Below, piece by piece: positions 110-35,979 of a DNA stretch of 64,000 nucleotides; positions within the stretch are counted from its first letter, which is position 1, and the number at the start of each line of letters is the position of its first letter. Under the pieces are notes generated by a model. That model was given only the letters and a program-made list of their open reading frames with translations. It did not search any database and was not told the origin of the DNA. Source of the stretch: Amphiscolops sp. MND2022 (taxonomy: Eukaryota); the NCBI GenBank assembly GCA_964187785.1, contig OZ076409.1:71736001-71800000 (forward strand), in the 5' to 3' direction. A program made the translations under genes and the position numbers.

Positions 110-157
110 GTGATAGCCTTTTAAGTTGGCCTTGTGTCAACTTGGGAAGGCTATCAC
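110..157 (+). other. Subterminal hairpin alpha (representative; present in every A, C and E unit with a 3' end in the window)
   Basis: GTGATAGCCTT-TT-AAGTTGGC-CTTGT-GTCAACTT-GGG-AAGGCTATCAC is an imperfect inverted repeat. Confidence 0.9.
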
Positions 158-483
158 ATCAAACAACCATCAACAAAAATAATTTTTGTTTATTGGATAT
201 TACAGTTGATACCTTATTTCGTGATTCTATACTACCGTTAGTATATTCCATGAGGTCACCTTACGATTGCATTCAGACTTTGATGAAAACCTATGAACTC
301 AAAGTCACATTTATATATTTTTTGCCCAAAAAAATCATCAAAAACATCTAATATATATAAAATTGAGTCTTTAACTTTTTTACGTTTCAAGTTTCTGCCG
401 TTATTAAGCCAATCAACTTCCTACAGCCACGCTCTCTGTCATACTGTACAACGCCACATAGTGTTGCGACGTGCACGGTCTGT

Positions 484-503
484 GGGCATGCCGAGGCATG
501 CCC
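484..503. promoter_or_regulatory. 20-bp palindrome GGGCATGCCGAGGCATGCCC, p53-family response-element-like (representative of 26 copies)
   Basis: Two adjacent decamers matching RRRCWWGYYY at 9/10 and 10/10, with no spacer. Function untested. Confidence 0.5.
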
Positions 504-525
504 TTCGACGACGTATGCCGAATAC

Positions 526-555
526 CGCGGGCCTACGCCCGCGCTCCCCGGCTAG
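526..555 (+). terminator. Helitron-like 3' terminal hairpin plus CTAG (representative; a putative transposition or replication end signal, not a transcription terminator)
   Basis: CGCGGGC-CTAC-GCCCGCG, then 8 nt, then CTAG. Confidence 0.55.
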
Positions 556-2539
556 GTGGGCGGGGGTAATTCCCCAACAAAAATTACGGCCGGCGGGTTG
601 GGTCCTGCCGGACGTCAAATAGCAAAGAATATCTAGTAGGAAACGGCGACACAGAATCGCGATTTTTAAATCTAACCACAATTTTTTGGACTTGGAGTGC
701 ATGCGGCCCTGAAATGCTCATACGAATCGAAGTTCCTGCTGACGTTAAGCGATTGAAATAATATATAAAAAGTTATGGCCCATTTTCCACTCACATAGAA
801 GGGTAAAATGAGGAAATTTTTAACAAAGTCGCTGATAACTCAAAATGTGTTAATTTTTGGACATTGACTGTGAAACAAACTTGGAACCTTCATTTCGTGG
901 CTGTGACATTGCACTGAACAGAAAAGATGTAGAGTTTTTACATTTTTTGAAAATTCGACATTTTTGAAATTTTTTTCACTACTATCAGTACACCATATGT
1001 CAAAAACGCCTCAGAAAAAAATTTTTCTTTGCTTTAAATTGGAAACTTTGGTATCCATGGTTTCTGTCGGAACCTACTCGCAGCCAAACACCCAACAGTT
1101 TGCATCCAATGTGAAAATAAAAATTTTTTCTGGGTCATAAGCGTTTCACAAGGATTTCTCAACTTAGTATTAATTTACAAAATAGTCAATTTGAACACAA
1201 TATTTTCATCGAGGCTTGTCGGCTATAGCCCTAATGTTCTAGAACGGTCCCAATGGCAACGTAGGAACCATTTATAGTAATAGAAAGTTAAAAAAAATAT
1301 TTTCACCCGGTCTTCAGTCATTTTTCAGTCATTCGGAACTTAACTTAGAAAAATTTCGACCAAAATACCCATTTTTTGTCAGGTCGAAAAATCAAATTCA
1401 GATTTTTAAGCAAAATTATTAACTCTGACGTGACTCATGGGGCCCATGATACTCAAAACAACGATTGACACTGGTATCAATGGCTCCAATAACATATGAG
1501 TCGCGATCGGACGTTATTTTGAGCAATATGTCTCAATTGAGGTAAAGATCTCGCAAGCCAGCGATCACTGTCAAATGTGATTTCATCAAAATTTTACTCA
1601 TTTTTGTCAATCATTATGTGCACAGAATGCGTAGGGTGCGTTTCAGCACTATAATGAGGTTTTTGAATGCATCGAGTTGCTCAAGGGGTGGTATGAGACA
1701 TTTTTGTCCCATATACTACTGTATTTTCCAAAATTTTTAGCCCAATATCTGGAAATACAAACTTGACAAAACACTTTCAACTACTTTATTCAAAGGTTAC
1801 GATATAGATCAACACTGTGGTTGATCAGAAACTTTCATCTCTTTCGTTTTCCGAAATATTTTCCTTCGCATGTGTTATATTTGTATCAGAAAAAAAATCG
1901 AAACTGAAAAATACGCTATTTTGCTAAAATAGAATCGCAATGATTGTGCCTAAAAACTCTTTAAACACTTCTAACGCGACCTTACGCACCCAAAATGATC
2001 GAAAATGCTAATCACAATGGTGACATGTGCTCTTTCAACGATCCTGGCTGGACAAGGTTTGCATATTTTTCAAGTACTTGTCAGCTGAATCTTGTGATAG
2101 CCTTTTAAGTTGGCCTTGTGTCAACTTGGGAAGGCTATCACATCAAACAACCATCAACAAAAATAATTTTTGTTTATTGGATATTACAGTTGATACCTTA
2201 TTTCGTGATTCTATACTACCGTTAGTATATTCCATGAGGTCACCTTACGATTGCATTCAGACTTTGATGAAATCCTATGAACTCAAAGTCACATTTATAT
2301 ATTTTTTGCCCAAAAAAATCATCAAAAACATCTAAAAAATATAAAATAGAGTCTTTAACTTTTTTACGTTTCAAGTTTCTGCCGTTATTAAGCCAATCAA
2401 CTTCCTACAGCCACGCTCTCTGTCATAGTGTACAACGCCACATAGTGTTTCGACGTTCACGGTCTGTGGGCATGCCGAGGCATGCCCTTCGACGACGTAT
2501 GCCGAATACCGCGGGCCTACGCCCGCGCTCCCCGGCTAG
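556..2539 (+). repeat. Unit U1, family A (1984 bp; head H1, tail T1)
   Basis: Junction to junction; closely similar to U6. Confidence 0.95.
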
Positions 2540-6719: not shown

Positions 6720-8100
6720 AAAAAGCCAACTATTTTGACCAAAATCCTAAAAATCATACCATTTCCTAAAAATTTTCAAATGCACCCCATTTGACGTATA
6801 AGATAAGCACAGAAAACTATCATATACCGATCAACTCTACTCCTATTGTAGATTATTAGAATTTTGTTTAGAATGAATTTTGATGAATAATAAAAAAATT
6901 TTGAACCCTCCAAAAATGGGCCAAAATTACACGAAAAAATTGACCTTAAAATACCAAAATGTCAAAAAATCATCAAAACCCAGGCTTCTTGGGGTTCTAT
7001 CAACTCCGCGTGGTCCACAGAGTATGCTAAAACAGGTTTTACCCGTTTTTGAGCAATATGTGAAAAAGCCGACATTTTTGGGAAAGAAAAACATACCATT
7101 TCATGAAAAAATTCAAATGCACGTCATTTGCCGTATTAGAATAGCACAGAAAACTATCACATACCAATCAACTCTACTTTCTTTGCAGATGAACAGAATT
7201 TTGTTTAGAATAAATTTTACCGGATAATAAAAAAATTTGAATCCTTCAAAAATGGGCCAAAAATACACGAAAAAATGGACCTTAAAAATTTAAAATGTCA
7301 AAAAATCATCAAAACAACAGCTTCTTGGGGTTCTATCAACTCCACGAGGTCCACAGAGTATGCTAAAACAGGTTTTACCCGTTTTTGAGCAATATGTGAA
7401 AAAGCCGACATTTTTGGGAAAGAAAAACATACCATTTCCTAAAAAAATTCTAATGCACGCCATTTGCCGTATGAAAATAGCACAGAAAACTATCACATAC
7501 CAATCAACTCTACTTTCATTGCAGATGAACAGAATTTTGTTTAGAATAAACTTTACCGGATAATAAAAAAAATTGATTCCTTCTAATATGGGCCAAAATT
7601 ACACGAAAAAATGGACCTTAAAATTTTAAAATGTCAAAAAATCATCAAAACCACGGCTTCTTGGGGTTCTATCAACTCCACGTGGTCCACAGAGTATGCT
7701 TAACCCGGTTTTACCCATCTTTGAGCAAAATGTGAAAATACCGACATTTTTGGAAAAGAAAAACATGCCATTTTCTAATAAATTTCAAATGCACGCCATT
7801 TGCTGTATGAGAATAACACAGAAAGCTGTCACATACCGATCAACTCTACTTCCATTGTAGATTATCAGAAGTTTGTTTAGAATAAATTTTGAAGGATAAT
7901 AAAAAAATTTGAATCCATCAAAAATGGGCCAAAATTACACGAAAAAATTGACCTTAAAATATCAAAATGTCAAAAAATCATCAAAACCACAATTTCTTGG
8001 CGTTCTATCAACTCCATATGATACCAAACCAGGTACTGCCAATCGTTTGAGTTATAATAAAAAAACGTCTTTTTTGGCAAGAATTCCATACCATAAATAA
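6720..8100 (+). repeat. Internal 336-bp tandem repeat (about 4 copies) of family B
   Basis: TGGGCCAAAA at 6917, 7253, 7589 and 7925 (period 336). Boundaries are approximate. Confidence 0.9.
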
Positions 8101-8305: not shown

Positions 8306-8348
8306 AAGTACATTCCATCTCCCCATCGGGGGAGATGAGAATGTACTT
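8306..8348 (+). other. Subterminal hairpin beta (representative; present in every B and D unit)
   Basis: AAGTACATTC-CATCTCCCC-ATCG-GGGGAGATG-A-GAATGTACTT is an inverted repeat with one bulged A. Confidence 0.9.
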
Positions 8349-15240: not shown

Positions 15241-17223
15241 GTGGGCGGGGGTAATTCCCCTTCAAAAAATTCGGCCGGCGGGTTGGGTCCTGCCGGACGT
15301 CAAATAGTGTGAAACATCCAGTAGGAAACGGCGACATAAATCAGCGATTTTAAAATTTAACCGTTAGAATTCGGACTTGGAGTGCATGCGGCCCCAAAAT
15401 GCCCATACGAATCGAAGTTCCTGCTGACGTTAAGCGATAAAAACACTTTATAAAAAGTTATGGCCTGTTTTACGTTCACTTAGAGAGGTAAAATGAGGAA
15501 AAATTTAACAAAGCTGCTGATAACTCAAAATACATTAATTTTTGGACTTTGACTGTGAACCAAGCTTGGAACCTTCATTTCGTGGCTGTGGCATTGCACT
15601 AAACACAAAAGATGTAAAGTTTTTACATTTTCTGAAAATTCGACATTTTTGAAATTTTTTTCACTACTATCAGTACCCCATATTTCAAAAACGCCTCAGA
15701 AAAATATTTTTATTTGCTTTAACTTGGAAACCTTGGTATCCATGGTTTCTGTCGGAACCTACTCGCAGCCAAACACCCAACAGTTTGCATCCAATGTGAA
15801 AATAAATATTTTTTCGGGGTCATAAGCGTTTCACAAGGATTTCTCAACTTAGTTTTTATTTACAAATTGGTCATTTTGAACACACTATTTTCATCGAGGC
15901 TTGTCGGCTATAGCCTTAATGTTCTAGAACGGTCCCACTGGCAACGTAGGAACCATTTATAGTAATAGAAAGTTTTAAAAAAATATTTTCACCCGGTCTT
16001 CAGTCATTTTTCAGTCATTCGGAACTTAACTTAGAAAAATTTCGACCAAAATACCCATTTTTTGTCAGGTCGAAAATTCAAAATCAGATTTTTAAGCAAA
16101 ATTATTAACTCTGACGTAACCCATGGGGCCCATGATACTCAAAACAACGATTGACACTGGTATCAATGGCTCCAATAACATATGAGTCGCGATAAGACGT
16201 TATTTTGAGCAATACGTCTCAATTGAGGTAAAGATCTCGCAAGCCAGCGATCACTGTAAAATGCGATTTCATCAAAAATTTACCCATATTTGTCAATCAC
16301 TATGTGCACAGAATGCGTAGGGTGCGTTTCAGCATTATAATGAGGTTCTTGAAGGCATCGAGTTGCTCAAGGGGTGGTATGAGACATTTTTGTCCCATAT
16401 ACTACTGTATTTTCCAAAAATTTTAGCCCAATATCTGGAAATACAAACTTGACAAAATACTTTCAACTACTTTATTCAAAGGTTACATTATAGATGAACA
16501 CTGTGGTTGATCAGAAACTTTCATCTCTTTCGTTTTCCGAAATATTTCCCTTCGCATGTGTTTTATTTGTAGCAGAAAAAAAAATCGAAACTGAAAAATA
16601 CGCTATTTTGGTAATATAGAATCGCAATGATTGTGCCTAAAAACTCTTTAAACACTTCTAACGCAACCTTACGCACCCAAAATGATCGAAAATGCTATTC
16701 ACAATGGTGACATGTGCTCTTTCTACGATCCTGGCTGAACAAGGTTTGCATATTTTTCAAGTACCTGTCAGCTGAATCTTGTGATAGCCTTTTAAGTTGG
16801 CCTTGTGTCAACTTGGGAAGGCTATCACATCAAACAACCATCAACAAAAATAGTTTTTGTTTATTGGATATTACAGTCGATACGTTTTTCGTGATTCTAT
16901 ACTACCGTTAGTACATTCCATCAGGTCACCTTACGATTGCATTCACTCTTTGATAAAAACATATGAACTCAAAGTCACATTTATATACTTTTGGCCCAAC
17001 AAAATTATCAAAAACATCTAAAACACATAAAATAAAGTCTTTAACATTTTTACGTTTCAAGTTTCAACCGTTATTAAGCCAATCAACGTCCTAGAGCCAC
17101 ATCCTGTCATACTGTACAACGCCACATAGTGTTGCGACGTTCACGGTCTGTGGGCATGCCGAGGCATGCCCTTCGACGACGTATGCCGAATACCGCGGGC
17201 CGACGCCCGCGCTCCCCGGCTAG
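15241..17223 (+). repeat. Unit U7, family A (1983 bp; H2, T1)
   Basis: Junction to junction. Confidence 0.95.
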
Positions 17224-20016
17224 GTGGCGGGGGGCTGTCCCCAATAGAATATAGTGAGGTAGGGTAGGGTTCCCTACCGAACATTCAGTACTGAAAGACT
17301 CTTGTAGTATGAAAATTTTTCGATGTTTTGAGACCGATTTCGGATTCCACCCGTCAGAAGTTTATGATTTTTTGGCCCCCACCCAGATTTTGGGCACTGA
17401 TCGCCCCCCACCAGGTTCCATACCCGTGGTTTCGTTGTGACGGGTACACGAGCGACCGTTAGGGGTCAATCAGGGGGTAAAATTTATAAAAGTGTGAATA
17501 ACTTTTCCCCCCGTCGTTTTAGCAGGTCCGGTCACTAGTAAAGGTTTGTTGGGCATCATGCAGTGGGTACGGGGGGCCAAACAAAAATTTTCTATCTTGC
17601 ACCGTTACGGACTTGGCCCCCCGCCCAAACCGCTATTTTACCGGAAATTGCACTTTTTGACCGGGAAGGAGTCGTCTGAGCGCGGAGTCATTTGGTAATG
17701 TTTTGTAGAGCATCTGGAGACGTGGTGGGGGACATGTAGTTTGCCGACCCCAGTTTACCCCTCGGACGGGAAATGACCGTTATGTGAGTTTCAAAAATGC
17801 CCCCCTCCAATTTTCCCCGCAATTTCCGGTGTGAAGGAGTCGGAATAGCGTGTCGAGTGCTATATATCAAAAGTAGCTTTAAACAAGGACCTATCAGAAA
17901 CATGTGGTTTGGGACACTTTGAACGGACCCGTTAGCCGGAAATAGGGTGACCGCCTCCTTTTTTTGGTGGTAAAACCGTAAAACGGGCATTAAAGTGTAA
18001 TTATCTCGTGAACGCGTGGAGCAATCGTGTCCATCACTCCTACAAGGTTTCATACCCATGACATGGTGCCTTCAGGGGGGCAAACAGATCAGCGCTATCT
18101 ATCACCGTTACGGACTTTGCCCCCCAGCCTAACCGCTATATTACCGGAAATTGCCCTTTTTGACCGGGAAGGAGTCGTCTGAGAGTGGAGTCGTTAAGTA
18201 ATGTTTTGTAGAGCATCTAGAGACGTGTTGGGGGACATGTAGTTTGCCGACCCCGGTTTACCCCTCGGACGGGAAATTACCGTTATGTGAGTTTTAAAAT
18301 TGACCCCCTTCAACTTTCCCCGTTATTTCCGATGTGAAGGAGTGAGGGTAGCGCGTCGGGTGTCATATATCAAAAGTAGGTTAAGACAAGGACCAACCGG
18401 GAACATGTTGTTTGGGACCCTCTGGCCCAACCCGTTAGCCGTTATAAGGGTGATCGCCTCCTTTTTTTACTGCTAAAACCGGAAAACGGGCATTGAGGGG
18501 TAAATATCTCGTGAACGCGTGGAGCAATCGTGTCCATCACTACTACAAGGTTTCATACCCATGATACGGTGCCTTCAGGGGGGAAAACAGATTACCGCTA
18601 TATATCACCGTTACGGACTTGGCCCCCCAGCCTAACCGCTATGTGACCGGAAATGTCATTTTTTGAGCCAAAAGGGTTGGTCCCAGCGTGGGAACGTCAG
18701 GTAACTTTATGTAGAACTCAATGAGACGAGTTGGGGGATATAGTTTTAGTCACCCCCCGTTGACCCGTTGGACCGGAAACGACCGTTATGTAGTGAAAAA
18801 TGTTATTTTTATACTTTTTGAAGGCCATTTAGGGCAGGAAGTATCGGTAATATGTCTTTGGACAGTATACAATGAAAGTTTTGGTGTGAAACGAGCAATC
18901 TGAAATAACCGTTATTATGATTCGGAAGTCACACTAACAGCGAAAATGACCGTTATGTAGTGAAAATTTTTTTCACAATTTTTTTATTTTCGATAGGTCC
19001 TTCAAGCCAGGAAGTAGCTGTATTAGGTCTTTGGTCACTTTATGATGATTGTGGTGTTGTGAGATGACCGTACGAACTTGACCGTTATAATGCCCCTGAA
19101 GTTGCGGCGGCACGAGAAATTTCAGAAAGTTTGTCTTTTCTGTGTTTTGTTGGAATAAACATGTAATTTCATCAAACCAAAGTGCATTCAGGGTGTCAGA
19201 AAGCTTCAAGAAAAGAATTTGACAGGAAACATGAGGTGAGAAAAAGGAAAATGCCACGGAAATCCAACCCGTTGGGAAGTAAAGATAATAAATTGGTTTG
19301 GAAGTGCCAATCGACGTGTAATTGCGGATCATAGCTACGATATTGTCTCTTTTGTTTCTTTTTGAAGACTTTGAACATTTTCACTTTATCAGCTTTATGA
19401 AGTTTCGACTCCATTAACTCAATAACCGTTACAATATGATAGCCCTCAAGTTGACCTTGTGTCAACTTGAAAGGGCTATCCTTTCACAACTGCGCAGCGA
19501 CAGTGTGATTGAGTGTTTTTGTTATTATCCATAGCCAATTTGAACTTCAACAAAAGTTTAACCATAGTTAAAAAATTTCATATGATTCTTTTAAAAGGAT
19601 AAGTAAGAAACAAATGTTTGACAAAAAACTTTCAACCTTTAATTTGTGGACTGAATATCAGGAAAACCATGTCTCCTAACGTTGTTGGATGAAATTCAAC
19701 ATGATTCTTTTAATAGGATAACAAAGTTTGACAACATATTTTTTTATATTCTTTCGTTGGTGCTCTACATTTTAGGAAAACGAATTTTCCAACAAATATT
19801 GTTGGCTGATGCCTGTTCATAGTGGCTTGAAAATTTCACCAACTGTAATGCTTTTTATCAAAGGTGAAACCGCTCCTTACCGTCGCATAATGTAATTCAA
19901 GCCGACGCCCACATGCCAACATCAACGCCCACCGTCCGTAGGCATGCCGAGGCATGCCTTTCGACGACGTATGCCAAATCACGCCCCTGCGAGGTCACTA
20001 AAGCGGTAGCGGCTAG
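17224..20016 (+). repeat. Unit U8, family C (2793 bp, GC-richer, related to family E)
   Basis: Starts GTGGCGGGGGGCTGTCCCC. Interior is unrelated to A. Has a hairpin alpha variant (19438-19480) and the conserved tail. Confidence 0.93.
17600..18830 (+). repeat. Internal 503-bp tandem repeat (about 2.4 copies) of family C
   Basis: CACCGTTACGGACTT at 17600, 18103 and 18606. End is approximate. Confidence 0.9.
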
Positions 20017-21294
20017 GTGGTCGTTAGCATGGGATTTTCTTTATGAGCGTAGTCCACTTTTTTTAGGCCGGGGTAGGGTCCCGGGCCGTTACCAATTTCT
20101 TACGGAGGAAAAATGTGAAAATCTGCGAGTTTAAAAAATTGGCCCGTACGATTTGGCTGAAAATTGGCATACAGCATCGTCTTGGTAAACAAATGACTTT
20201 GTCCTAGTGACATTTTGCCCAGAAAATTCAAAAAGTTGGTCAAATTGAAAATTTTTTGACCGTCTAAGGCTAAAATTTGACTTTTTCGCTTTTTTTGGTC
20301 AATTTCCTCAGAACTGGTTGATTTTGGTGAAGTAAGTCATAAGAGGTTATAAGGTCTGCAAATAGCCATCAATTGGCTTGCATAATCAGATTTTGTCAAA
20401 AGTGTTTAGTTTTTTCAAAATTTCACACTTTTTTTTCATTTCAGTGTTTTTTGATACAATTTATTGAATTTTTACTAAGTTCCACTAAATATTTTTAAAA
20501 TGTTTTTAAAAAACCTTTTTTTGCACGTTTTTGATGTTTTTTGCTCTCCCATATAGGTTTTCGCATACGGGGAACCTGAATCTGACAACGAAATAATTTT
20601 ATTCCGCAGTTCAACTTACGCCATTTTTAATAGTGAAAAATCACTCATTTTCAATCTAACGAGTGAAAATATCAGAATTTAAAAACCTAAAGTTGAGTTT
20701 AAGGCGACTTACAGGTAGAAACAAATGCTCAGAAACAAACTGATTTCTTGTATTAGCTAAAGAAAGCCTTTAAAATTCTTTTTACTTTCTTTAAATCAAA
20801 ATTCGACACTTTTCATGAAAGTTGTCAGTGGAAAAAATTTATCATTTTTTAAATTAAAAACTTGCTTTGTTGGTCATTTCCGTTAGTCATTAGTAGCTGT
20901 GTAATGCTCCAAAGCCTTTCAAGTTCTTTTGACCCTATTTGAAAATTTTTGATACTGCATAATCAATCCGAGAGAACGAAACAGTTGTGTACATTCCATC
21001 TCCCTCTTGGGGGAGATGAGAATGTACTTCCTAAAGTCTAGGTACTACAGATCATATTTGGTTTTATGCGACGCCCTCTATGCTAGTGCATATAAATACA
21101 AGTTGTTTGGCTGGATTTTGCTTCTGACTTGACGTATACTGTACGTTTGGTACTGACAATACCCATCATTTACATAACAAACGTCAACGCCACATACCCT
21201 TACCAACGCCCATAGTCCGTAGGCATGCCGAGGCATGCCTTTCGACGACGCGCGCCAAACACAAGCGCGCCCGCACTTTTGCGGTAGCGGCTAG
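20017..21294 (+). repeat. Unit U9, family D (1278 bp)
   Basis: Starts GTGGTCGTTAGCATGG. Hairpin beta at 20989-21027. Homologous to U25. Confidence 0.93.
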
Positions 21295-23283
21295 GTGGGC
21301 GGGGGTAATTCCCCAACAAAAATTACGGCCGGCGGGTTGGGTCCTGCCGGACGTTCAAATAGCGCGAAGCATCTAGTAGAAAACAAGGAGTCCTGAAACA
21401 GCGATTTTAAAATTGAACCGTTAGAATTTGGTTTTAGATTGCATGCGGCCCTAAAATCCCCATACGAATGGAAGTTCCTGCTGGCGTTAAGCGATTGAAA
21501 TAATATATAAAAAGTTATGGCCCATTTTTGGGTCACCGAGAAGGTCAAAATGAAGAAAATTTTAACTAAGTTGCTGATAACTCAAAATGTGTTAATTTTT
21601 GGACTTTGACTGTGAAACAAGCTTGGAACCTTCATTTCGTGTCTGTGGCATTGCACTGAACACAAAAGATGTAAAGTTTTCACATTTTTTGAAAATTCGA
21701 CATTTTTGAATTTTTTTTCACTACTATCAGTACACTATATGTCAAAAACACCTCTGAAAATTTTTTTTTATTGCTTAAATTTAGCAACCTCGGTATCCAT
21801 GGTTTCCGTCAGTACCTACTCGCTGCCAAACACTCAACAGTTTGCATCCAATGTGAAAATAAAATTATTTTCGAGGTCTTAGGTGTTTCACAAGGATTTC
21901 TCAACTTAGTATCAATTTACAAATTGGTCATTTTGAACACATTATTTTCATCGAAGCGTGTCATATACCGTCCTAATGCTCACGAACGGGCCTACTGGCA
22001 ACGTTGGAACCATTTATAGTAATAAAAAGTTTTAAAAAAATTTTTTCACCCCGTCTTCAGTCATTTTACACACTTTCGGAACTTAACTTAGAAAAATTTC
22101 AACCAAAAACCCATTTTTTGTCAAGTCGAAAATTCAACTTCAGCTTTTTAAGCAAAATAAATAAATCTGACATAACCAGTGGGGCCCATGAAACTCAAAA
22201 CCACGATTGAGACTGGTATCAATGGCTCCAATAACATATGAGTCGCGATAAGACGCTATTTTGAGCAAAACATCTCAATTGAGGTAAAGATCTCGCAAGC
22301 CAGCGATCACTGTGAAATGTGATTTCATCAAAAATTTACTCTTTTTTGTCAATCACTATGTGCACAGAATGCGTAGGGTGCGTTTCAGCACTATAATGAG
22401 GTTTTTGAAGGCATCGAGTTGCTCAAGGGGTGGTATGAGACATTTTTGTCCCATATACTACTGTAGTTTCCAAAAATTTTACCCCAATATCTGGAAATAC
22501 AAACTTGACAAAATACTTTCAATTACTTTATTCAAAGGTTACAATATAGATGAACACTGTGGTTGATAAGAAACTTTCATCTCTTTCGTTTTCGGAAATA
22601 TTTCCGTTCGCATGTGTTACATTCATAGCAGAAAAAAAAATCGAAACTGAAAAATATGCTATTTTGCTGATATAGAATCGCAATGATTGTGCCTAAAAAC
22701 TCTTTAAACACTTCTAACGCAACCTTACGCACCCAAAATGATCGAAAATGCTATTCACAATGGTGACATGTGCTCTTTCTACGATCCTGGCTGGACAAGG
22801 TTTGCATATTTTTCAAGTACCTGTCAGCTAAATCTTGTGATAGCCTTTTCAGTTGGCCTTGTGTCAACTTGGGAAGGCTATCACATCAAAAAACCATCAA
22901 CAAAAATAATTTTTGTTTATTGGATCTTACAGTCGATACTTTTTTTCGTGATTCTATACTACCGTTAGTATATTTCATCAGGTCACCTTACGATTGCATT
23001 CAGTCTTTGATAAAAACCTATGAACTCAAAGTCACATTTATATAGTTTTTTGCCAGAAAATAACATCAAAAATATCTAAAATATATAAAATAGAGTCTTT
23101 AACATTTTTACGTTTCAAGTTTTTGCCGTTATTAGACCAATCAACGTCCTAGAGCCACATCCTGCCACATACTGTACAACGCCACATAGTGTTGCGACGT
23201 GCACAGTCTGTGGGCATGCCGAGGCATGCCCTTCGACGACGTATGCCGAATACCGCGGGCCTACGCCCGCGCTCCCCGGCTAG
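21295..23283 (+). repeat. Unit U10, family A (1989 bp; head H4, T1)
   Basis: Junction to junction; closely similar to U23. Confidence 0.95.
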
Positions 23284-26200
23284 GTGGGCGGGGGTAATTC
23301 CCCAACAAAAAAATCGGCCGGCGGGTCGGGTCCTGCCGGCCGTCCAAAATCAAAATTATACTAGTAGAAAACGGCCGGTCAAACGAGCTATTTTTTTATT
23401 TAACCGTTAGAATTTGGGTTTAGATTGCATGCGGCCATGAAATGGCCATACGAATCGAAGTTCCTGCTGACGTTTTGCGATTGAAACACTTTATAAAAAG
23501 TTATGGCCAATTTGTCAGTCACCTAGAAGGGCAAAATGAGGAAAATTTCAACAAAGTCGCTGATAACTCAAAATGTGTTAATTTTTGGACTTTGACTGTG
23601 AAACAAGCTTGGAACCTTCATTTCGTGGCTGTGGCATTGCACTAAACACAAAAGATGTAAAGTTTTTACATTTTTTGAAAATTCGACATATTTGAAATTT
23701 TTTTCACTACTATCAGTACCCCATATGTCAAAAACACCTCAGAAAAAAATTTTTATTTGCTTTAAATTGAATACCTTGGTATCCATGGTTTCTGTCGGAA
23801 CCTACTCGCAGCCAAACACCCAACAGTTTGCATCCAATGTGAAAATAATTTTTTTTTCGAGGTTATAGGTGTATCACAAGGATTTCACAACTTAGTATTA
23901 ATTTACAAAATGGTCATTTTCAACATCATATTTTCATCGAGGCATGTCGGATATAGTCTTAATGCTCACGACCGGTCCTACTGGCAACGTAATACCCATT
24001 TATAGAAATATAAAGTTTAAAAAAAATATTTTCACCCGATCTTCAGTCATTTTTCAGTCATTCGGAACTTAACTTAGAAAAATTTCGACCAAAATACCCA
24101 TTTTTGTCAGGTCGAAAATTCAAATTCAGCTTTTTAAGCTAAATTATTAAATCTGACGTAACCAGTGGGGCCAATGAAACTCAAAACTGCAATAGACACT
24201 GGTATCAATGGCTCCAATAACATATGAGTCGCGATAAGGCGTTATTTTGAGCATTACGTCTCAATTGAGGTAAACATCTCGCAAGCCAGAGATCACTGTG
24301 AAAAGTGATTTCATCAAAAATTTACTCATTTTCGTCAATCACCATGTGCACAGAATGCGTAGGGTGAGTTTCAGCACTATAATGCGGTTTTTGAAGGAAT
24401 CGGTCTGCTCAAGGGGTGGTATGAGACATTTTTTTTCATGTAGTACTATATTTCTCAAAACTTTTAGCCCATTATCTCGAAAAGCTCACTTCGCAAATTA
24501 CTTTCAGTTACTCTATTCGAAGCTTAGAATATATATGAACACTGTGGTTGATCAGAAACTCTTGACTATTTTGTTTTTGGAAAAAAACTGCCTTGCATGT
24601 GTTACATTAGTGGCAGGAAAAATACCAGTAGCTCCAAAAATCACAATTTTGGACGGACAGACCTGCAATGATGCAAAGCAAAAACGTTTCAACAACTTCT
24701 GGCGCCACTTTTTTTACCCAAGAGGTTCGAAATTACTATTAACAATGCTGACATTCGCTATAAATAAGATCGAGGTCAATTTACTAACACTTAGGTTATA
24801 CATTTATATCTGAGAAACCATTCTTTGTCAGGTCGCAATTTTAAATTTAGTTTGGGAAACAATACTTTTCACTCTGAAGCAAACCGTTGGGCCCAAATTA
24901 CTCAAAAACTACAAAAAGACTGTCACCATATGCCCTAATAGCATATGAGATTCGACCGTTCGTTTTTAACACAAAAACTCTCATCCGAAGTAAACATGTT
25001 GAAAGCCTTGAATCACCGTGAGAAATGATTTCATCAAAAAATATTCCTTTTTCGTCAATCTTCATCTACACAGAACACGTTGTGTCATTTTCAGCCGTGA
25101 AATGAGCTTCTACCGTAATATGGGTTGCTCAAGGTGTTGTATAAGACAAAAACTTCCTCTTTTCTACTATCTTCTTCAAATATTTCAACCCTTTGTCACA
25201 AGAAGTTAATATTCAAAATCTCTTTGAAATGTTTCTTTAGGTTGGGGTGAAGTGTTAGAACAATAATTATGATCGAAGAATGATAGTATTGGTGTTTGGA
25301 CCATGTCCGGATGAACAAATTGCAAAATCATGAAAAATTTCTTACCATTTTTGGTCATTTTGTCAGTACTAAAAATGTTAGCTGAAAAAGAATTTTTTTG
25401 ATGGCACCATTGGATTCCTCTCAAAAAGTTAGCTATATGAACTGTGTAATAACCCCGTATCTTTTCAATTTAAATAATTTTAAAAAGCAAACTTTTTTGA
25501 CTAAAATCCTAAAAATCATACCATTTCCTAAAAAATTTCAAATGCCCCCCATTTGACGTATAAGAATAGCACAGAAAACTATCACATACCGATCGACTCT
25601 ACTTCTATTGTAGATTACCAGAATTTTGTTTAGAACAATTTTTGACGGATGCAAAAAAAATTTAAACCCTCCAAAAAAGGGCCAAAATTACACGAAAAAA
25701 TTGACCTTAAAATTTTAAAATGTCGAAAAATCATCAAAACCACAGCTTCTTGGGGTTCTATCAACTCCACGTGGTCCACAGAGTATGTTAAAACAAGTTT
25801 TACCCGTATTTGAGCAATATGTGAAAAAGCCGACTTTTTTGGGAATGAAAAACATACCATTTCCTAAAAAATTTCAAACGCACCCCATTTGACGTATAAG
25901 AATAGCACAGAAAACTATCACATACCGATCGACTCTACTTCCATTGTAGGTTACCAGAATCTTGTTTAGAACAATTGTTGACGGATGCAAAAAAAATTAA
26001 ACCCTCCAAAAATGGGCCAAAATTACACGAAAAAATTGACCTTAAATTTTTAAAATGTCAAAAAATCATCAAAACCACAGCTTCTTGGGGTTCTATCAAC
26101 TCCACGTGGTCCACAGAGTATGCTAAAACAGGTTTTACCTGTTTCTGAGCTATATGTGAAAAAACCGACATTTTGGGGAAGAAAAACATACCATTTCTTA

Positions 26201-28043
26201 AAAAATTTCAAATGCACGCCATTTGCCGTATGAGAATAGCACAGAAAACTATCACATACCGATCAACTCTACTTCTATTGTAGATTATCAGATTTTTGTT
26301 TAGAACAAATTTTTATGGATATAAAAAATTTTTAAACCCTCCAAAAATGAGCCAAAATAACACGAAAAAATGGACCCTAAATTTTTAAAATGTCAAAAAA
26401 TTATCCAAACCACAGCTTCTTGGGGTTCTATCAGCTCCACGTGGTCCACAGAGTATGCTAAAACAGGTTTTGCCCGTTTTTGAGCAGTATATGAAAAAGC
26501 CGACATTTTTGGGGAAGAAAAACATACCATTTCCTAAATAATTTCAAATGCAGGCAATTTGCCGTATGAGAGTAGCACAGAAAACTATCACACACCGATC
26601 AACTCTACTTCTTTTGTAGATTATCAGAATTATGTTTAGAGTAAAGTTTTATGGATATGAAAAATTTTTATACCCTCCAAAAATGGGCCAAAATGACACA
26701 AAAAAATTGACCTCAAATTTTTAAAATGTCAAAAAATTATCCAAACCACAGCGTCTTGGCGTTCTATCAACTCCAAATGACCTTCAGAGTATACCAAACC
26801 AGGTATTGCCAATCTTTTGAGCAATATTTAAAAACACCGACTATTTGGCAAGAACACGATAATATGTTCCATATAAGAAGTGAATCATTCCACATATATA
26901 CCCGGTCTAATATTTCCAAATTAGCGATAACATTTATACATGATGGTTTTTGAAAGTGAGCTTCATAAGAGGTTGAGATGTAATAATACGTAAATGGACC
27001 CTAAGTTTCATTGAAATCTCAATGGAATACGTCCAATCAACTTCAATCCTAACTATTATATAACAAAAAACACTTGAGTACATTCCATCTCCCCATCGGG
27101 GGAGATGAGAATGTACTTTTCAAAAGCCAAAAACTTCGAATTTTAAATCTTTTGTAACATTGTATGTAACTGTTGAAACGATGAACGAATAAAAATGCTT
27201 CTAGTACCTTCATCAATTTTTGCTTCAGCTCCTATTTCTGCAGAACAAAACCAAAAGACACACTTACAGCAGTTAAGTTCGATTGTATAACTCAGTGAAT
27301 AAAGGTATGACTGAGGAAGTTCACAAGTTGTTTCAAAAGTTTCCGGCCTTCCAAAATCATGAAACGTCCACACAACCAAGATAGCAAGTGAAAGAATGCT
27401 GAATGCACCTTATTAGATGAGATAAATAATGTGTGGAACTTGCCATTATCTCAAGATGACGTTGATTTATGATCTTTTAAGGATAGTTCGATATGTGACC
27501 ACAATAGTGGAAAACTTATTACTATTTGAAGAACACCGTGGAAAGCGTTCAGAAAGGACAGTATATTTGTTTCGAGCATGCATGCGTGTGTTCCTTTGGT
27601 GACGTTAGCTTAGTGTACATGACGGAGGTATTCGAGAGATTATGATAGAGTTTACTCACAAGTCTTTGTTTTTTTAAACTTTCTATGCCGTTGAGTACAT
27701 TCGTAAGGTACATCCATCCCCTTCTCTGGGAATGTACGTTTGCCAAATGACTGTCATCCAAAATTCGTAATCCGGACGAGTTTAACTACATAAACATGTG
27801 ATGAGCGTTTTCAATTCACAACCGAATAACATTTTTTTTCTCGAAAATGATGATGGTTTTGATTTTGATGTCTTCTACTTTTATCATCATGCAAACGACC
27901 TTACCATGTCTCTCTTCTGTCGTCATTTGTACAACGCCACATAGCGTTCCGACGCCCACCGTCTGTGGGCATGCCGAGGCATGCCCTTCGACGACGTATG
28001 CCAAATGAGCCATACCCGCACTCTGGAGTGCGGTAGCGGCTAG
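23284..28043 (+). repeat. Unit U11, family B (4760 bp; H3, tail T4 CCGCACTC-TG-GAGTGCGG)
   Basis: Same architecture as U3. 336-bp array at about 25480-26860; hairpin beta at 27078-27116. Confidence 0.95.
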
Positions 28044-30029
28044 GTGGGCGGGGGTAATTCCCCTTCAAAAAATTCGGCCGGCGGGTTGGGTCCTGCCAGA
28101 CGTCAAATAGTGTGAAACATCCAGTAGGAAACGGCGACATAAATCAGCGATTTTAAAATTTAACCGTTAGAATTCGGACTTGGAGTGCATGCGGCCCCAA
28201 AATGCCCATACGAATCGAAGTTCCTGCTGACGTTAAGCGATAAAAACACTTTATAAAAAGTTATGGCCCATTTTACGTTCACCTATAAGGGTAAAATGAA
28301 GAAAATTTTTACAAAGTCGCTGATAACTCAAAATACATTAATTTTTGGACTTTGACTGTGAAACAAGCTTAGAACCTTCATTTCGTGGCTGTGGCATTGC
28401 ACTGAACACAAAAGATGTAAAGTTTTTACATTTTTTGAAAATTCGACATTTTTGATTTTTTTTTCACTACTATCAGTACACTATATGTCAAAAACACCTC
28501 TGAAAAAAAATATTATTTGCTTAAAATTGGAAACCTTGGTATCCATGGTTTCTGTCGGAACCTACTCGCTGCCAAACACCCAACAGTTTGCATCCAATGT
28601 GAAATTAAAATTTTTTTCGAGGTCTTAGGTGTTTCACAAGGATTTCTCAACTCAGTTTCAATTTACAAATTGGTCATATTGAACACAATATTTTCATCGA
28701 AGCTTGTCAGATACCGCCCTAATGCTCACTAATGGGCCTACTCGCAACGTTGGAACCGTTTATAGTAATAGAAAGTTTAAAAAAAATATTTTCACCCTGT
28801 CTTCAGTCATTTTTCAGTCATTCGGAACTTAACTTAGAAAAATTTCGACCAAAATACCCATTTTTTGTCAAGTCGAAAAATCAAATTCAGATTTTTAAGC
28901 AAAATTATTTACTCTGACGTAACTAGTGGGCCCCATGATACTCAAAAACACGATTGGGACCGGTACCAATGGCTCCAATTTCATATGAGCCGCGATAAGA
29001 CGTTATTTTGAGCAACACGTCTCAATAGAGGTAAACATCTCGCAAGCCTGGGGTCACAGTGAAAAGTAATTTCATCAAGAATTTACTCATTTTTGTCAAT
29101 CACTATATGCACAGAGTGCTTTGGGTGCGTTTCAGCACTTTAATGAGGTTTTTGAAGGCATCGGTCTGCTCAAGAGGTGGTATGAGACATTTTTTTCCTG
29201 TATACTACTGTATTTTCCAAAACTTTTAGCCAATTATCTGGAAAACTAACTTGACAAAATACTTTCAATTACTTTATTCAGAGGTTACAATATAGATGAA
29301 CCCTGTGGTTGATCAGAAACTCTCAACTATTTTGTTTTCCGGAAAAAATCACTTCGCATCTGTTACATTTGTAGCATGAAAAAAAGCAGAATCTAAAAAA
29401 TACGCAGTTTTGTTAAGATAGAATTGCGTTGATTGTGTCTAAAAAGTTAATAAACACGTCTGACGCCACCATACAGACCCAAAATGATTGAACATGTCAA
29501 TCAGAATGCTGACATGTGTTCTATCTACGATCATGGTTTGACAATTTTTGCATTATTTTCAAGTACCTGTTAACTGAATCTTGTGATAGCCTTTTAAGTT
29601 GGCCTTGTGTCAACTTTGGAAGGCTATCACATCAAAAAATAATCAACAAAAATGCTTTTTATTTATACAATGTTGTTTTCGATAAACATTTTTGCGATTC
29701 TAAGCTACCGTTAGTACCTTCCATGAGGTCATCTAACGATAGCATGCAGTCTCTGATAAAAAATTATGAACTCAATTACATTTTTCTAAAATTTTTCTCA
29801 GAGAAAAGTACAAATAAATAAAAACAATATAAAATTCTAATCTCAAACAACTATAAATTGTCTGTTTTTCACCGTTATCAGTTTACGACCCATCACCCTA
29901 TGTCACGGCACCGTCATTAGTACAACGCCACATAGTGTTGCGACGTGCACAGTCTGTGGGCATGCCGAGGCATGCCCTTCGACGACGTATGCCGAATACC
30001 GCGGGCCTACGCCCGCGCTCCCCGGCTAG
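28044..30029 (+). repeat. Unit U12, family A (1986 bp; H2, T1)
   Basis: Closely similar to U24. Confidence 0.95.
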
Positions 30030-32001
30030 GTGCGGGGGGGAAACCCCAACAAATATATTGGAGGATTCGGGTAGGGTCCTGAATCCGATTTTAACTCTAA
30101 TAGCTATCGATAGGAAATCGTGCAAAAATTTCGGGATCTCGTGATCTAACCATAGGATTTTAAAGTTGGAGCGGCCCCCACCAGATTTTCCAAAGTTATT
30201 CGCCCCCCACCGGGTTCCAGCGTGATTGAAATATTTTGACGGGGTACACGGGCGACCGTTAGGGGTCATTTTGGGGGTAAAATTTATATCCGGTCGCATA
30301 ACTTTTTTCCTGTTGGATTAAAACTTTGGGACCCTGCTAAAAGTTTCTTGACCGTGTTGCGGGGGCTCCGGAGGTCCAAACCAAATTTTTCTATCTTGAA
30401 GCTATCTCCAAGTACCCCCCCGCCCAAACCGTTATTTTTCCGGAAACGCAGGTTTTTGACCCGGAAGGAGTCGTCTGAGCGCGGGGTCGTTAGGTGATGT
30501 ATTGGGGACGGCCTTGAGACGAAGCGGGGGATATATAGTTTGCCGACCCCAGTTCACCCCCCGGACGGGAAATGACCGTTATATGAGCGGGAAAAATGCC
30601 CCCCTCCACGTTTTACCGCTATTTCCGGTGTGAAGGAGTGGGAGTAGCGCTTCGGGAGCCATATATCAAAAATAAGTTTAGACAAGGACCTACCGGAAAC
30701 ATGTAGTTTGGGACCCCCTGGACCAACCCGTTAGCGGGAAATGGGGCTTCCGCCTCCTTTTTTTACTGCTAAAACCGTAAAATGGGCATTGAGGGGTAAA
30801 TATCTCGTGAACGCGTGGAGCAATCGTGTCCATCACTACTACAAGGTTTCATACCCATGATATGGTGCCTTCAGGGGGGCAAACAGATTTCCGCTATCTA
30901 TCACCGTTACCGACTTGGCCCCCCAGCCTAACCGCTATGTGACCGGAAATGTCACTTTTTGGGCCCAAAGGGTCGGTCCCAGCCGGGGAACGGTAGGTAA
31001 CTTATTGTAGTACTCAATGAGACGAGATGGGGGACATAGTTTCAGTCACCCCCCGTTACCCCTTGGGACCGGAAATGACCGTTATGAGGGTAAATTTGCA
31101 TTTTTTATACTCTTTGAAGTGCATTTTTGTGCGGGAGGAGTGGTAATAGGTGCTTGGACACTATATGAGGTAAGGGAGGACGTGAGGCGAACATTCGGAA
31201 ATAACCGTTATGTTGACCCTAAAGTACCCCTGGTACCGTAAACGACCGGAAATGGTCAAATTTTGCGTCTATTGGGTACAAATGTTTGGTATTTTGTAGA
31301 TAAAAGTATCTATTAGGTGTTTCGACGGTCTGCAGTAGTGAACGTAGTCATGAAACCTTGTGGGGGGTAACGGTATATAGCACCGGAAGTCCAAACCGTT
31401 GGACACAGGATATGTTTTTGGTTTGAAAAGGTCTTTCGGTGTACTTTTGTCGACTATTATGGACTATGTTTAAAAATTACAGTTTTTCCATATAGTTTCA
31501 GAGACTCCGAAACCTCAATCAACATAACCGTTACCTTTCGATAGCCTTTCAAGTTGGCCTGGTGTCAACTTGGAAGCGCTATCCTTCTAAAATCGTTATT
31601 CAAGAGTGTTTTTGGGTAGGTATATTTTGCATTAGTACCAATTAGAGCTTCATCAACAGTGTATCAACGACAAAAACTAAGCCGTCATGATTCCGTTATT
31701 AGAATAATAGTGAGCTAATTGTTGACAAAAATAATTTTTTCCATACAAAATGTGTCCTAAATGCCAGGAAACCTATTTACCTAACAAATGGTATTGATTG
31801 GAATGTATGTAACAGATTTATAAAAATTCAAATTGAATATTACGTTTCATTATGGAAGCTGAAACGTCATATTTCAGTTTAATTAACGTCCACGCCACAT
31901 ACTTTACATCAACGCCCACCGTCTGTGGGCATGCCGAGGCATGCCCTTCGACGACGTATACCAAATACATACCCAAACGACGCCCGTACATGCCGGGCTA
32001 G
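30030..32001 (+). repeat. Unit U13, family E (1972 bp)
   Basis: Starts GTGCGGGGGGGAAACCCC. Has about 1.4 copies of the 503-bp repeat shared with C and a hairpin alpha variant at 31540-31583. Confidence 0.93.
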
Positions 32002-33987
32002 GTGGGCGGGGGTAATTCCCCAACAAAAAAATCGGCCGGCGGGTCGGGTCCTGCCGGCCGTCCAAAATCAAAATTATACTAGTAGAAAACGGCCGGTCAA
32101 ACGAGCTATTTTTTTATTTAACCGTTAGAATTTGGGTTTAGATTGCATGCGGTCATGAAATGGCCATACGAATCGAAGTTCCTGTTGACGTTTTGCGATT
32201 GAAACACTTTATAAAAAGTTATGGCCAATTTGTCAGTCACCTAGAAGGGCAAAATGAGGAAAATTTTAACAAAGTCGCTGATATCTCAAAATGTGTTAAT
32301 TTTTGGACTTTGACTGTGAAACAAGCTTGGAACCTTCATTTCGTGGCTGTGGCATTGCACTGAACACAAAAGCTGTAAAGTTTTCACATTTTTTGAAAAT
32401 TCGACATTTTTGAAATTTTTTTCACTACTATCAGTACCCCATATGTCAAAAACACCTCAGAAAAATTTTTTTATTTGCTTTAAGTTGGAAACCTTGGTAT
32501 CCATGGTTTCTGTCGGAACCTACTCGCAGCCAAACACCCAACAGTTTGCATCCAATGTGAAATAAAAAATTTTTTCGAGGTCATAAGCGTTTCACAAGGT
32601 TTTCATGATTTAGTATTAAATTACATAGTGGTCATTTTAAACATAAAATTTTGGTCCAGGCATGTCGGATATAGTCTGAATGCTCACGAACGGTCCTACT
32701 GGCAACGTAGGAACCATTTATAGTAATAAAAAGTATTAAAAATTTTTTTCACCCGGTCTTCAGTCATTTTTCAGATATTCGGAACTTAACTTAGAAAATT
32801 TTCGAACCAAATACCCATTTTTTGTCAGGTCGAAAATTGAAATTCAGCTATTAAAGCAAAATTTTTTACTCTGACGTAACCAGTGGGGTCCATGATACTC
32901 AAAAATACGATTGGGACTGGTACCAATGGCTCCTATATCATATGAGCCGCGATAAGACGTTATTTTGAGCAATACGTCTCAATTGAGGTAAACATCTCGC
33001 AAGCCTGGGATCACAGTGAAATGTAATTTCATCAAAAAATTACTCATTTTCGTCAATCACTATGTGCATAGAGTGGGTAGGGTGAGTTCCAACACTATAA
33101 TGAGGTTTTTGAAGGCATCGGGTTGCTCAAGGGGTGGTATGAGTCATTACTTTCCTATATACAACTGTATTTTCAAAAACTTTTAGCCCATTATCTGGAA
33201 AAACTAACTTGACAAAATACTTTCAATTACTTTATTCAAAGGTTACAATATAGATGAACACTGTGGTTGATCAGAAACTTTCATCTCTTTCGTTTTCCGA
33301 AATAACTCCTTTCAAATGTGTTACATTTGTAGCAGGAAAAAAACTGAAACTAAAAAATACGCGATTTTGCTGAGATAGAATCGCAATGGTTGCGCCTAAA
33401 ATCTCTTTAAAAACTTCTAACGCAGCCTTATGGACCCAAAATGATTGAAAATGCCATTCACAATGCTGACATGTGCTCTTTCTACGATCCTGGCTGGACA
33501 AGTTTTGCATTTTTTTCAAGTACCTGTTAACTGAACATTGTGATAGCCTTTCAAGTTGGCCTTGTGTCAACTTGGGAAGGCTGTCACATCAAAAAACTGT
33601 CCACAAAAATACCATTTGTTTATAGGATATTGCTGTCGATGCTTCACTTCGTGATTCGATCATGTCGTGAGTTCCTTCCATCAGGTCAGCTAACATTTGG
33701 ATTCAGTGTTGGATAAGAACCTATGATTTTCATGACAATTTTCGTTTTTTTTTGCCAACAAAAAGTACAAATAAATGATATAAAACATATTTGTAACCTC
33801 TAGGAAGTTTAACTTTACCTTTTTTACCGTTACCATCACAACCCACCCCCTACGACCTCGCAGTGTCCTCATTACAACGCCACATAGTGTAGCGACGCCC
33901 ACAGTCTGTGGGCATGCCGAGGCATGCCCTTCGACGACGTATGCCAAAAATAGCGCCCTCCGCGGTCACTACCGCGGTAGCAGCTAG
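32002..33987 (+). repeat. Unit U14, family A (1986 bp; H3, T3)
   Basis: Junction to junction. Confidence 0.95.
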
Positions 33988-35979
33988 GTGGGCGGGGGTA
34001 ATTCCCCAACAAAAAAATCGGCCGGCGGGTCGGGTCCTGCCGGCCGTCCAAAATCAAAATCCTCCTAGTAGAAAACGGCATGTCAAACGAGCTATTTTTT
34101 TATTTAACCATACGAATTTCACCATTTTTTGCATGCGGCCCTGAAATGGCCATACGAGACGAAGTTCCTGCTGACGTTTTGCGATGTAAATGTTTTATAA
34201 AAAGTTGTGGCCGATTTGTCACTTACCAAGAAGGGCAAAATGAGGAAAATTTTTACAAAGTCGCTGATAACTCAAAATGTGTTAATTTTTGGACATTGAC
34301 TGTGAAACAAGCTTGGAACCTTCATTTCGTGGCTGTGGCATTGCACTGAACACAAAAGATGTAAAGTTTTTACATTTTTTGAAAATTCGACATTTTTGAT
34401 TTTTTTTTCACTAGTATCAGTACACTATATGTCAAAAACACCTCTGAAAAAAATTTTTATTTGCTCAAATTTAGAAACCTCGGTATCCATGGTTTCCGTC
34501 AGTACCTACTCGCTGCAAAACGCTCTACAGTTTGCATCCAATGTGAAAATAAAATTTTTTTGGAAGACTTAGGTGTTTCACAAGGATTTCTCAACTTAGT
34601 ATCAATTTACAAATTGGTCATTTTGAACACATTATTTCCATCGAAGCTTGTCGGCTATAGCCTTAATGTTCTAGAACGGTCTCACTGGCAACGTAGGAAC
34701 CATTTATAGTAATAGAAAGTTTTAAAAAAATATTTTCACCCGGTCTTCAGTCATTTTTCAGTCATTCGGAACTTAACTTAGAAAAATTTCGACCAAAATA
34801 CCCATTTTTTGTCAGGTCGAAAAATCAAAATCAGATTTTTAAGCAAAATTATTAACTCTGACGTAACCCATGGGGCCCATGATACTCAAAACAACGATTG
34901 ACACTGGTATCAATGGCTCCAATAACATATGAGTCGCGATAAGACGTTATTTTGAGCAATATGTCTCAATTAAGTTAAAGATCTCACCAACCAGTGATCA
35001 CTGTGAAATGTAAATTCATTAAAAATTTACTCATTTTCGTCAATCACCATGTGCACAGAGTGCGTAGGGTGAGTTCCAGCACTATAATGAGGTTTTTGAA
35101 GGCATCGGGTTGCTCAAGGGGTGGTATGAGACATTTTTTTCCTATATACTACTGTATTTTCCAAAAGTTTTAGCCCATTATCTGGAAAAACTAACTTGAC
35201 AAAATACTTTCAATAACTTTATTCAAAGGTTACAATGTAGATGAACCCAGTGGTTGATCAAAAATTTTCATCTCTTTCGGTTTCCGAAATAATTCCCTTC
35301 GAATGTGTTACATTTGTAGCAGGAAAAAAACCGAAACTAAAAAATACGCGATTTTGCTGAGATAGAATCGCAATGGTTGCCTCTAAAATCTCTTTAAATA
35401 CTTCTAACGCGACCTTATGGACCCAAAATGATTGAAAATGCCATTCACAATGCTGACATGTGCTCTTTCGACGATCCTGGCTAGACAAGTTTTGCATATT
35501 TTTCAAGTACCTGTTAACTGAATTTTGTGATAGCCTTTTAAGTTGGCCTTGTGTCAACTTGGGAAGGCTATCACATCAAAAAACTTTCATCAAAAATACT
35601 TTATGTTTATACAATAATGTAGTCGATAGTTATTTTCGTGATTTTACACTACCGTTAGTACCTTCCGCCAGGTCAGCTGACGATTGCATGCTGTCTTTGA
35701 TAAAAACGTATGAACACCAAGAAAATTTTGTTGTATTTTTGTTGAAGAAAAGTATTAATAAATAATAAAAATATAATTCTAACCTTAAACAACTATAAAT
35801 TTGCTTAACCGTTATTAGTCCTACCACCTATCATCAGCCTATGCCATGGCCCGGTGATTAGTAGTACAACGCCACATAAAGTAGCGACGCCCACAGTCTG
35901 TGGGCATGCCGAGGCATGCCCTTCGACGACGTATGGCAATTTTAGCGTAGCCCGCGGTCACTACCGCGGTAGCAGCTAG
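33988..35979 (+). repeat. Unit U15, family A (1992 bp; H3, T3)
   Basis: Junction to junction. Confidence 0.95.

Follow-up and report, generated by a model that had tools for sequence, protein, structure and literature searches.

The 64,000-nucleotide window analysed here, by which we mean the whole stretch of DNA, is a head-to-tail array of non-coding units, and the evidence supports the view that these behave as separately mobile elements that are joined to one another inside one invariant 8-bp sequence, GCTAGGTG. Everything lies on a single strand: the core, the head hairpin and the tail palindrome each occur 26 times on the forward strand and never on the reverse, and none of the 25 complete units is truncated or inverted. 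The array is real and recently active, its joints require a site-specific enzyme, and among related units ordinary homologous recombination has mixed body sequence as well.

Unit lengths span 1.3-4.8 kb, and an all-against-all comparison of units resolves several types (Table 1). The T type comprises 14 units, each near 1985 bp, and the D type five units near 4760 bp that have about 1.3 kb of 5' sequence in common with T; there are two E units of 1972 bp each, one unit of a related type (E', 2793 bp), two F units near 1277 bp and a single G unit of 1992 bp. The bodies of T, E and F cannot be aligned with one another except at their ends and in one internal module, and those of T and D, which are related, are mosaic, with recombination signals over the whole length. 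The internal tandem repeats of the D and E' units resemble those in satellite-carrying non-autonomous Helentrons. The GC content of the 64 kb is 37%, a value that, together with the absence of any convincing gene and of prokaryotic or viral matches, suggests a eukaryotic host. The ratio of observed to expected CpG is 0.99 over the whole window and CpG transitions account for 45 of 476 substitutions between close unit pairs, so the array bears little sign of methylation decay.

Table 1. Positions of the array, representative units and structured modules in the window
Feature	Position	Strand	Remarks
Head-to-tail array	1-64000	+	25 complete units and two partial; no array edge within the window
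Unit u0	556-2539	+	T type, about 1985 bp; from unit comparison
Unit u7	17224-20016	+	E' type, 2793 bp; internal duplication of ~500 bp; stemless U8 tail at end
Unit u8	20017-21294	+	F type, 1278 bp; body not alignable to T/E; second copy 62184-63459
Unit u12	30030-32001	+	E type, 1972 bp; body not alignable to T/D/F; second copy 35980-37951
Unit u17	39960-44721	+	D type, 4762 bp; internal 336-bp tandem repeat
Unit u21	53450-58211	+	D type, near-copy of u17
336-bp tandem repeats of D type	6750-8016, 25512-26846, 42189-43539, 48938-50196, 55679-57029		about 4 copies
Duplication of ~500 bp in E' unit	17530-18790		
Junction core, first of 26	551-558	+	GCTAGGTG; identical at 8 positions in 26/26
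CTAG starts of the other 25 cores	2536, 4517, 9277, 11269, 13252, 15237, 17220, 20013, 21291, 23280, 28040, 30026, 31998, 33984, 35976, 37948, 39956, 44718, 46705, 51454, 53446, 58208, 60194, 62180, 63456		
Short G-run/C-run hairpin directly after core	563-575	+	absent or weak in F and G heads
Head hairpin	590-611	+	8-bp stem; fixed loop T(A/T/C)GGG(T/G); +40 to +61 from core
Conserved tail block	449-515	+	CRACG-type direct repeats at about -102, -84, -45 and -42 from core; same offsets in L002
Tail palindrome	484-503	+	RGGCATGCC-GA-GGCATGCCY; outer R/Y covary, G..C in 22 and A..T in 4
Terminal hairpin, T1 version	526-543	+	7-bp stem, 4-nt loop; ends 12 nt before CTAG end
Internal palindrome A	2096-2139, also 112-155	+	T, E, E' and G types; z -6.85
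Internal palindrome B	8308-8346, also 20989-21027	+	D and F types; one extra base in 3' arm; L002 567-605

The sequence CTAGGTG occurs 32 times on the two strands of the window, against 2.48 expected. The 26 forward-strand occurrences are the unit junctions, all of them GCTAGGTG, and the six on the reverse strand lie inside unit bodies and have no end modules. An initial annotation of this DNA had stated that CTAG is always followed by GTG, which holds at 26/26 unit ends but, over the whole forward strand, for only 26 of 84 CTAG. The positions immediately flanking the core (-1 and +8) vary, with all four combinations present (18, 5, 1 and 1, plus one T). As each of these goes with longer haplotypes, the point of exchange must be within the invariant 8-mer; the near-identical 50-bp block of the tail, further upstream, is not its site. 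That annotation allowed for a nick at other positions of the 8-mer, and rightly so: the array alone places exchange within these eight bases and no more finely. Around the core, positions -14 to -1 and +8 to +21 vary by unit type, and constant inverted repeats are absent.

Tails track the unit upstream of a junction and heads the unit downstream (Mantel r 0.25 and 0.72, respectively, with -0.01 for tail against head). Across the junction the mutual-information test of tail-head association gives p 0.85, as compared with 0 of 20000 permutations for head and tail within a unit, and 19 distinct tail-head combinations are found in 26 junctions. Among the 16 unit pairs with at least 93% identity, which are not independent of one another, members agree in their own tail class in 16 cases and in their own head in 14, and they agree in the preceding tail in five and in the following head in four, near the random values of 0.22 and 0.17. 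Units u17 and u21 differ at three of 4762 bases, but their upstream neighbours are not the same. Downstream, the next head belongs to one lineage in both cases, and the right border of this duplication may thus be the work of homologous recombination. Adjacent units are not more alike than expected by chance (identity 0.559, versus 0.608 in permuted order), and multi-round rolling-circle concatemers are thus not seen; nor is clear 3' read-through in the array of this window.

The same architecture exists in another source. A metagenome contig of 1172 bp (L002), holding a single copy, is a true homologous junction with internal palindrome B, the tail block and a new, compensatory head stem, and it joins a T1-like tail to an E-like head. 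Its core is GCGAGGTG, with CGAG in place of CTAG, and a terminal stem is lacking (z +0.6), which shows CTAG and that stem to be less fixed than the other modules. Two further metagenome matches to the search pattern (L001 and L003) are bacterial chance matches confined to the pattern, a GTDB match (L004) is likewise due to chance and covers 22 nt only, and pattern scans of viral contigs, phages and plasmids gave no matches. Searching sequencing runs returned one small-share match, run X1 (0.09); no RNA run was listed, so the search says nothing on expression. Over positions 19700-23500, X1 yielded 27 low-depth contigs, 18 of them under 90% alike, with no joints, and among the 6 of 23 loose ends listed none was at a junction. 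One X1 contig, 177 nt long, breaks off precisely at the core's G, which hints weakly that in X1, too, several tails may precede that head.

Three modules present in every unit are absent from the initial annotation: a head hairpin with a covarying stem, a tail palindrome of 20 bp and a long internal palindrome of one of two kinds. In nine variants of the head hairpin, a set that includes L002 and leaves out E', for which a 1-nt shift is needed, 95.8% of cells are paired and double changes occur at 5/8 pairs, with none of 500 shuffles as well paired; the third pair is G-T in seven variants and G-C in two. The loop region GGGT(A/T/C)GGG (595-603, present in all heads) is telomeric-repeat-like, and together with the G-run after the core it could form a G-quadruplex.

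The tail palindrome is kept across unrelated unit types and in L002 (812-831), and T units show a trough of diversity there. It is a zero-spacer, one-mismatch match to the two-half-site response element of the p53 family. Relative to this consensus, 25 of 26 tails have one mismatch and the other has two; such a site arose in 2 of 20000 shuffled tails and 4 of 2000 shuffled units, figures that belong to a likeness noticed after the fact. A reading of the bases before this palindrome as a REP-like guide was rejected, the R base covarying as part of the stem. The CRACG-type repeats of the surrounding tail block appear iteron-like, and may function as iterons.

In all 26 unit 3' parts a long palindrome with a bulge precedes the core by 260-930 nt, one to each part. 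It is A in 19 and B in seven, two forms that are unrelated in sequence and mutually exclusive, with folding z of about -6 to -7. In eight related variants of A, the non-Watson-Crick cells read on the forward strand comprise 18 G-T and one A-C, an excess which points to a folded single forward strand, whether DNA or RNA. A second, decayed palindrome B is present in unit u19 (51107-51141). Two further candidates were discarded: the internal palindrome as a second exchange point, since linkage does not drop there, and GTGGGCG in the head with CGCCCAC in the tail as an asymmetric inverted repeat, for which covariation within units is absent.

The terminal stem before CTAG is the least conserved of the structured modules, with the head hairpin, the tail palindrome and the internal palindrome all better conserved. 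At the first junction its arms (526-532 and 537-543) enclose a loop at 533-536 and are followed by an 8-nt spacer, CTAG (552-555) and GTG (556-558). A perfect 7-bp stem with a 4-nt loop is found at 20/26 junctions, 11 of type T1 at 12 nt and nine of types T3, T4 and U3 at 10 nt, counted from the last base of CTAG; of the remaining six, three have a 5-bp stem at 10 nt, two a 5-bp stem that overlaps CTAG and one (junction 20013) is stemless. If CTAG is taken as the end, a Helitron-like 3' hairpin, as first proposed from the letters of the sequence, is thus present at 23/26 junctions (20 with 7 bp and three with 5 bp), though not in U8, the E types or L002. Folding of the variable tails (200 shuffles) gives z of -2.3 to -4.2 for T1, U3, T3 and T4, -1.1 to -1.9 for the 5-bp types, -1.4 and -1.5 for E and +1.0 for U8; for the 35-nt stretch 522-556 alone z is -1.53, 13 of 200 shuffles being as good. 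The four-base loops of the terminal stems (533-536, for instance) start with C in 23/23 cases and vary at the other three bases.

All the stems that the initial annotation listed are present at junctions, and they do pair; its claim that the stem changes sequence while keeping its pairing needs a qualification for T1, which is in a different register and is not a compensatory variant of T3, T4 and U3. In the alignment the conserved motif GCCCGC forms the 3' arm in T1 and the 5' arm in T3, T4 and U3, so that the T1 hairpin is one that arose separately, and two independent hairpins occupy the same place. True double changes are confined to 2/7 stem pairs in the seven aligned T3, T4, U3 and U8 ends (T1, E and the 5-bp types being left out because of register).

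The window has 11 frames of at least 120 aa, none of which encodes a Rep, a helicase or a recombinase, so any transposase goes unobserved. In 41 frames from 7 of the 25 units there was no Pfam match to a transposon family, and of five weak matches four were below the cut-off. The match to Flu_PB2_6th (E 8e-6), in a 135-aa stop-to-stop frame on the reverse strand of u7 (18976-19380), is probably due to chance, with a best PDB E of 0.39 and no support from the Atlas.

With moderate confidence, we favour the interpretation that these gene-less units of several lineages are non-autonomous passengers of an HUH/rolling-circle transposase, encoded elsewhere, that targets its own junction. It is recommended by a 3' end of Helitron-like geometry, by hairpins with a strand bias and by the lack of inverted repeats around the core. 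The geometry of 20/26 ends matches that of Helraiser, which has a 19-bp palindrome 11 nt from its end and kept about 90% of activity when the stem was exchanged (PMC4778049, available text). Such a transposase would nick the forward strand within the core and peel off one unit as single-stranded DNA, stopping at the next core, with the terminal hairpin as the stop signal. The peeled unit would circularize, which restores a tail-core-head junction, and the circle would join into another core at an existing junction; as every insertion regenerates the core, the array would both grow and shuffle. The long internal palindrome could serve in second-strand priming or protein binding. Helraiser joints fall between A and TC, CTAG and T, and A and T, each leaving a 5' T (PMC4778049, available text), from which we infer a nick between GCTAGG and TG; a nick between CTAG and GTG, the choice of the initial annotation, would be the alternative.

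Several observations weaken this HUH interpretation. A 5' TC and a target between A and T are absent in 26/26 cases, and in L002 the terminal stem is missing and CGAG takes the place of CTAG. An invariant 8-bp crossover suits a tyrosine recombinase. Described Helitrons, in contrast, show no preference for unique targets and insert at dinucleotides (PMC8788227, accessible part). The loops of the terminal hairpins here vary, though in Helraiser a change of the loop did not keep activity (PMC4778049, available text). Multi-round concatemers, as noted, are not seen, and the enzyme goes unobserved. Finally, the signal for single-stranded DNA is ambiguous, since tolerance of G-T fits RNA equally well. 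What endures of the rolling-circle group with own-end targeting that was originally suggested is the mobility of the units, joining at the core and the Helitron1 3' geometry; a rolling-circle enzyme does not follow, a tyrosine recombinase predicting the same junctions, and neither does a CTAG terminus, given the CGAG of L002.

A tyrosine recombinase needs an invariant 8-bp crossover. The units could accordingly be cassettes of a Crypton- or integron-like system whose circles excise and re-integrate by crossover in the 8-bp core, with the hairpins as binding or replication signals, an explanation that we regard as possible, if rather unlikely. It accounts well for exchange confined to the invariant 8-mer and for units that are full length and co-oriented and form no concatemers, and a core that is uniform within the array and one base different in L002 is as expected if partners must match. 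There is also a precedent in CryptonF-1_cRei, with the end CACCG and the target CAYCG (PMC9977147, available text); the reverse strand of our core begins CACC. However, a recombinase acting on double strands does not predict a hairpin 10-12 nt before CTAG or the G-T bias of the forward strand, and the constant inverted repeats that it would lead one to expect around the core are lacking. The distance of the bulged palindrome from the crossover is, moreover, unlike the anatomy of an integron attC site, and no recombinase was seen in the scanned frames.

The many forward-strand hairpins with wobble pairs could instead belong to RNA-mediated elements, or to an array of structured non-coding RNAs that span the junction and have variable spacers, and the candidate p53-like site could then act as a promoter element. 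We consider this improbable. Tail and head show no linkage across the core, so the two halves are not alleles of one gene. In 18 kb (16000-34000) an Rfam search at E up to 1 returned only one sub-threshold miRNA match, no tRNA genes were found in the window, and poly(A), truncated ends and short-repeat tails are absent in 25/25 units.

The mosaic T and D bodies, recombined along their whole length, are what would be expected of an ordinary macrosatellite diversified only by unequal crossing-over and gene conversion. The array does not, however, follow the satellite pattern of concerted evolution, in which neighbours are alike and blocks are duplicated: none of nine unit pairs with at least 95% identity has a neighbour pair at 95%. 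Furthermore, non-homologous bodies meet at the same eight bases, with the 50-bp near-identical tail block unused for exchange, and structured modules are kept across unrelated bodies and in L002, all of which makes this explanation very improbable. That the shuffled order is an assembly artefact is barely credible: near-identical 4.7-kb units could be misordered, and run X1 does not span the region, but an assembler should be unable to join different sequences through an 8-base overlap, the 19 tail-head combinations are local, and L002 is an independent contig with a mixed junction of its own.

A eukaryotic rolling-circle or recombinase system restricted to one 8-bp site would, if true, represent a new targeting mode, and self-junction targeting would offer a way for transposons to give rise to very large tandem arrays of mixed composition. 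The enzyme, once found, would be a candidate tool for site-specific integration. The four conserved modules provide a precise profile with which to search eukaryotic assemblies for the autonomous partner.

Among described elements, Helitron1 (HLE1) resembles the units in its short GC-rich hairpin 10-12 nt before CTAG, in the exchangeable sequence of the stem and in the absence of terminal inverted repeats. At the candidate terminus, where HLE1 has its 3' CTRR, CTAG stands in 26/26 array ends and CGAG in L002. Non-coding passengers with internal tandem repeats are a further likeness, to the non-autonomous Helibat families of Helraiser; the same papers (PMC4778049, PMC11417382), in the available text, describe for HLE1 no counterpart of the hairpin in the head, the palindrome in the tail or the long one inside the unit. 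HLE1 elements inserted 3'-to-5' in abutting fashion are reported in Myotis; distinctive of our array is the strict reuse of one 8-bp junction in 26/26 joints (core CGAG in L002). The start is non-canonical, as had been pointed out, with GTG following CTAG in 26/26 cases on the forward strand and CCG, CTG, CCC or CAG on the reverse, and at the 26 junctions no TC is shared at any offset from -12 to +19. A target between A and T is lacking too: the dinucleotide AT is absent from the core, and the target within the array is a G-rich junction.

Helitron tandem arrays have reportedly been described by Xiong and by Dias, both in 2016. For Helitron2/Helentron (HLE2; FoHeli, DINE-1/HINE), tandem insertions are reported, along with hairpins near both ends and internal tandem repeats that recall the present units (PMC5148889, PMC4067079, available sections). 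The asymmetric terminal inverted repeat of HLE2 (11-17 nt) was not found in the array, where the longest match between head and tail is 7 nt (mean 6.2 within units and 6.3 between), and neither were its T-run, T-rich ends and joint between T and T (or T and C), there being no TT in or beside the core. In Paramecium, telomeric repeats are the target of a third clade of Helitrons (PMC13085455, accessible part), and centromeres are reported to contain tandem arrays that are mosaics of transposons (10.64898/2026.09.17.752431, accessible part). Flanking terminal inverted repeats, which would have told against the original proposal, were looked for as well; inverted repeats between a unit's own head and tail do not exceed 7 nt, and the signature of a TIR transposon or MITE is thus lacking in these units.

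In bacterial IS91 and IS200-IS605 passengers and in integron cassette arrays, joining is hairpin-guided and sequence-specific, the target is formed anew each time, and unrelated units come to be stacked in head-to-tail order. The units described here differ in being 1.3-4.8 kb long, gene-less and apparently eukaryotic, GTDB, phages, plasmids and viral contigs having returned only the chance 22-mer. Replitrons, also of HUH type, carry a short direct repeat at each end, and the core shared by successive units of our array might be read as such a repeat; Replitron-1, in contrast, has TAAAGG, targets RG, and shows fuzzy right ends and target duplications (PMC10288648, available text). The joints here are exact. 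CryptonF-1_cRei excises cleanly, and its terminal motif equals its target motif, so that insertion regenerates the site, but that motif is of 5 bp and its insertions are dispersed (PMC9977147, available text), unlike the 8-bp core, the multi-family array and the several single-strand hairpins of the present system. Neither these ends nor an obligatory 8-bp junction is described in the open-access main text searched, which includes the available text of PMC6213432 and PMC13600161; a literature search for the literal motifs brought up two zebrafish papers, in each of which a single 13-mer matched. We put forward, tentatively and as a rather doubtful proposition, that the array represents an undescribed group of eukaryotic mobile elements conserved across species, whose enzyme would be strictly specific for the elements' own 8-bp junction and would build integron-like, continually reshuffled arrays of unrelated passengers by way of a single-stranded intermediate, possibly switched on by the conserved candidate p53-family site of every tail.
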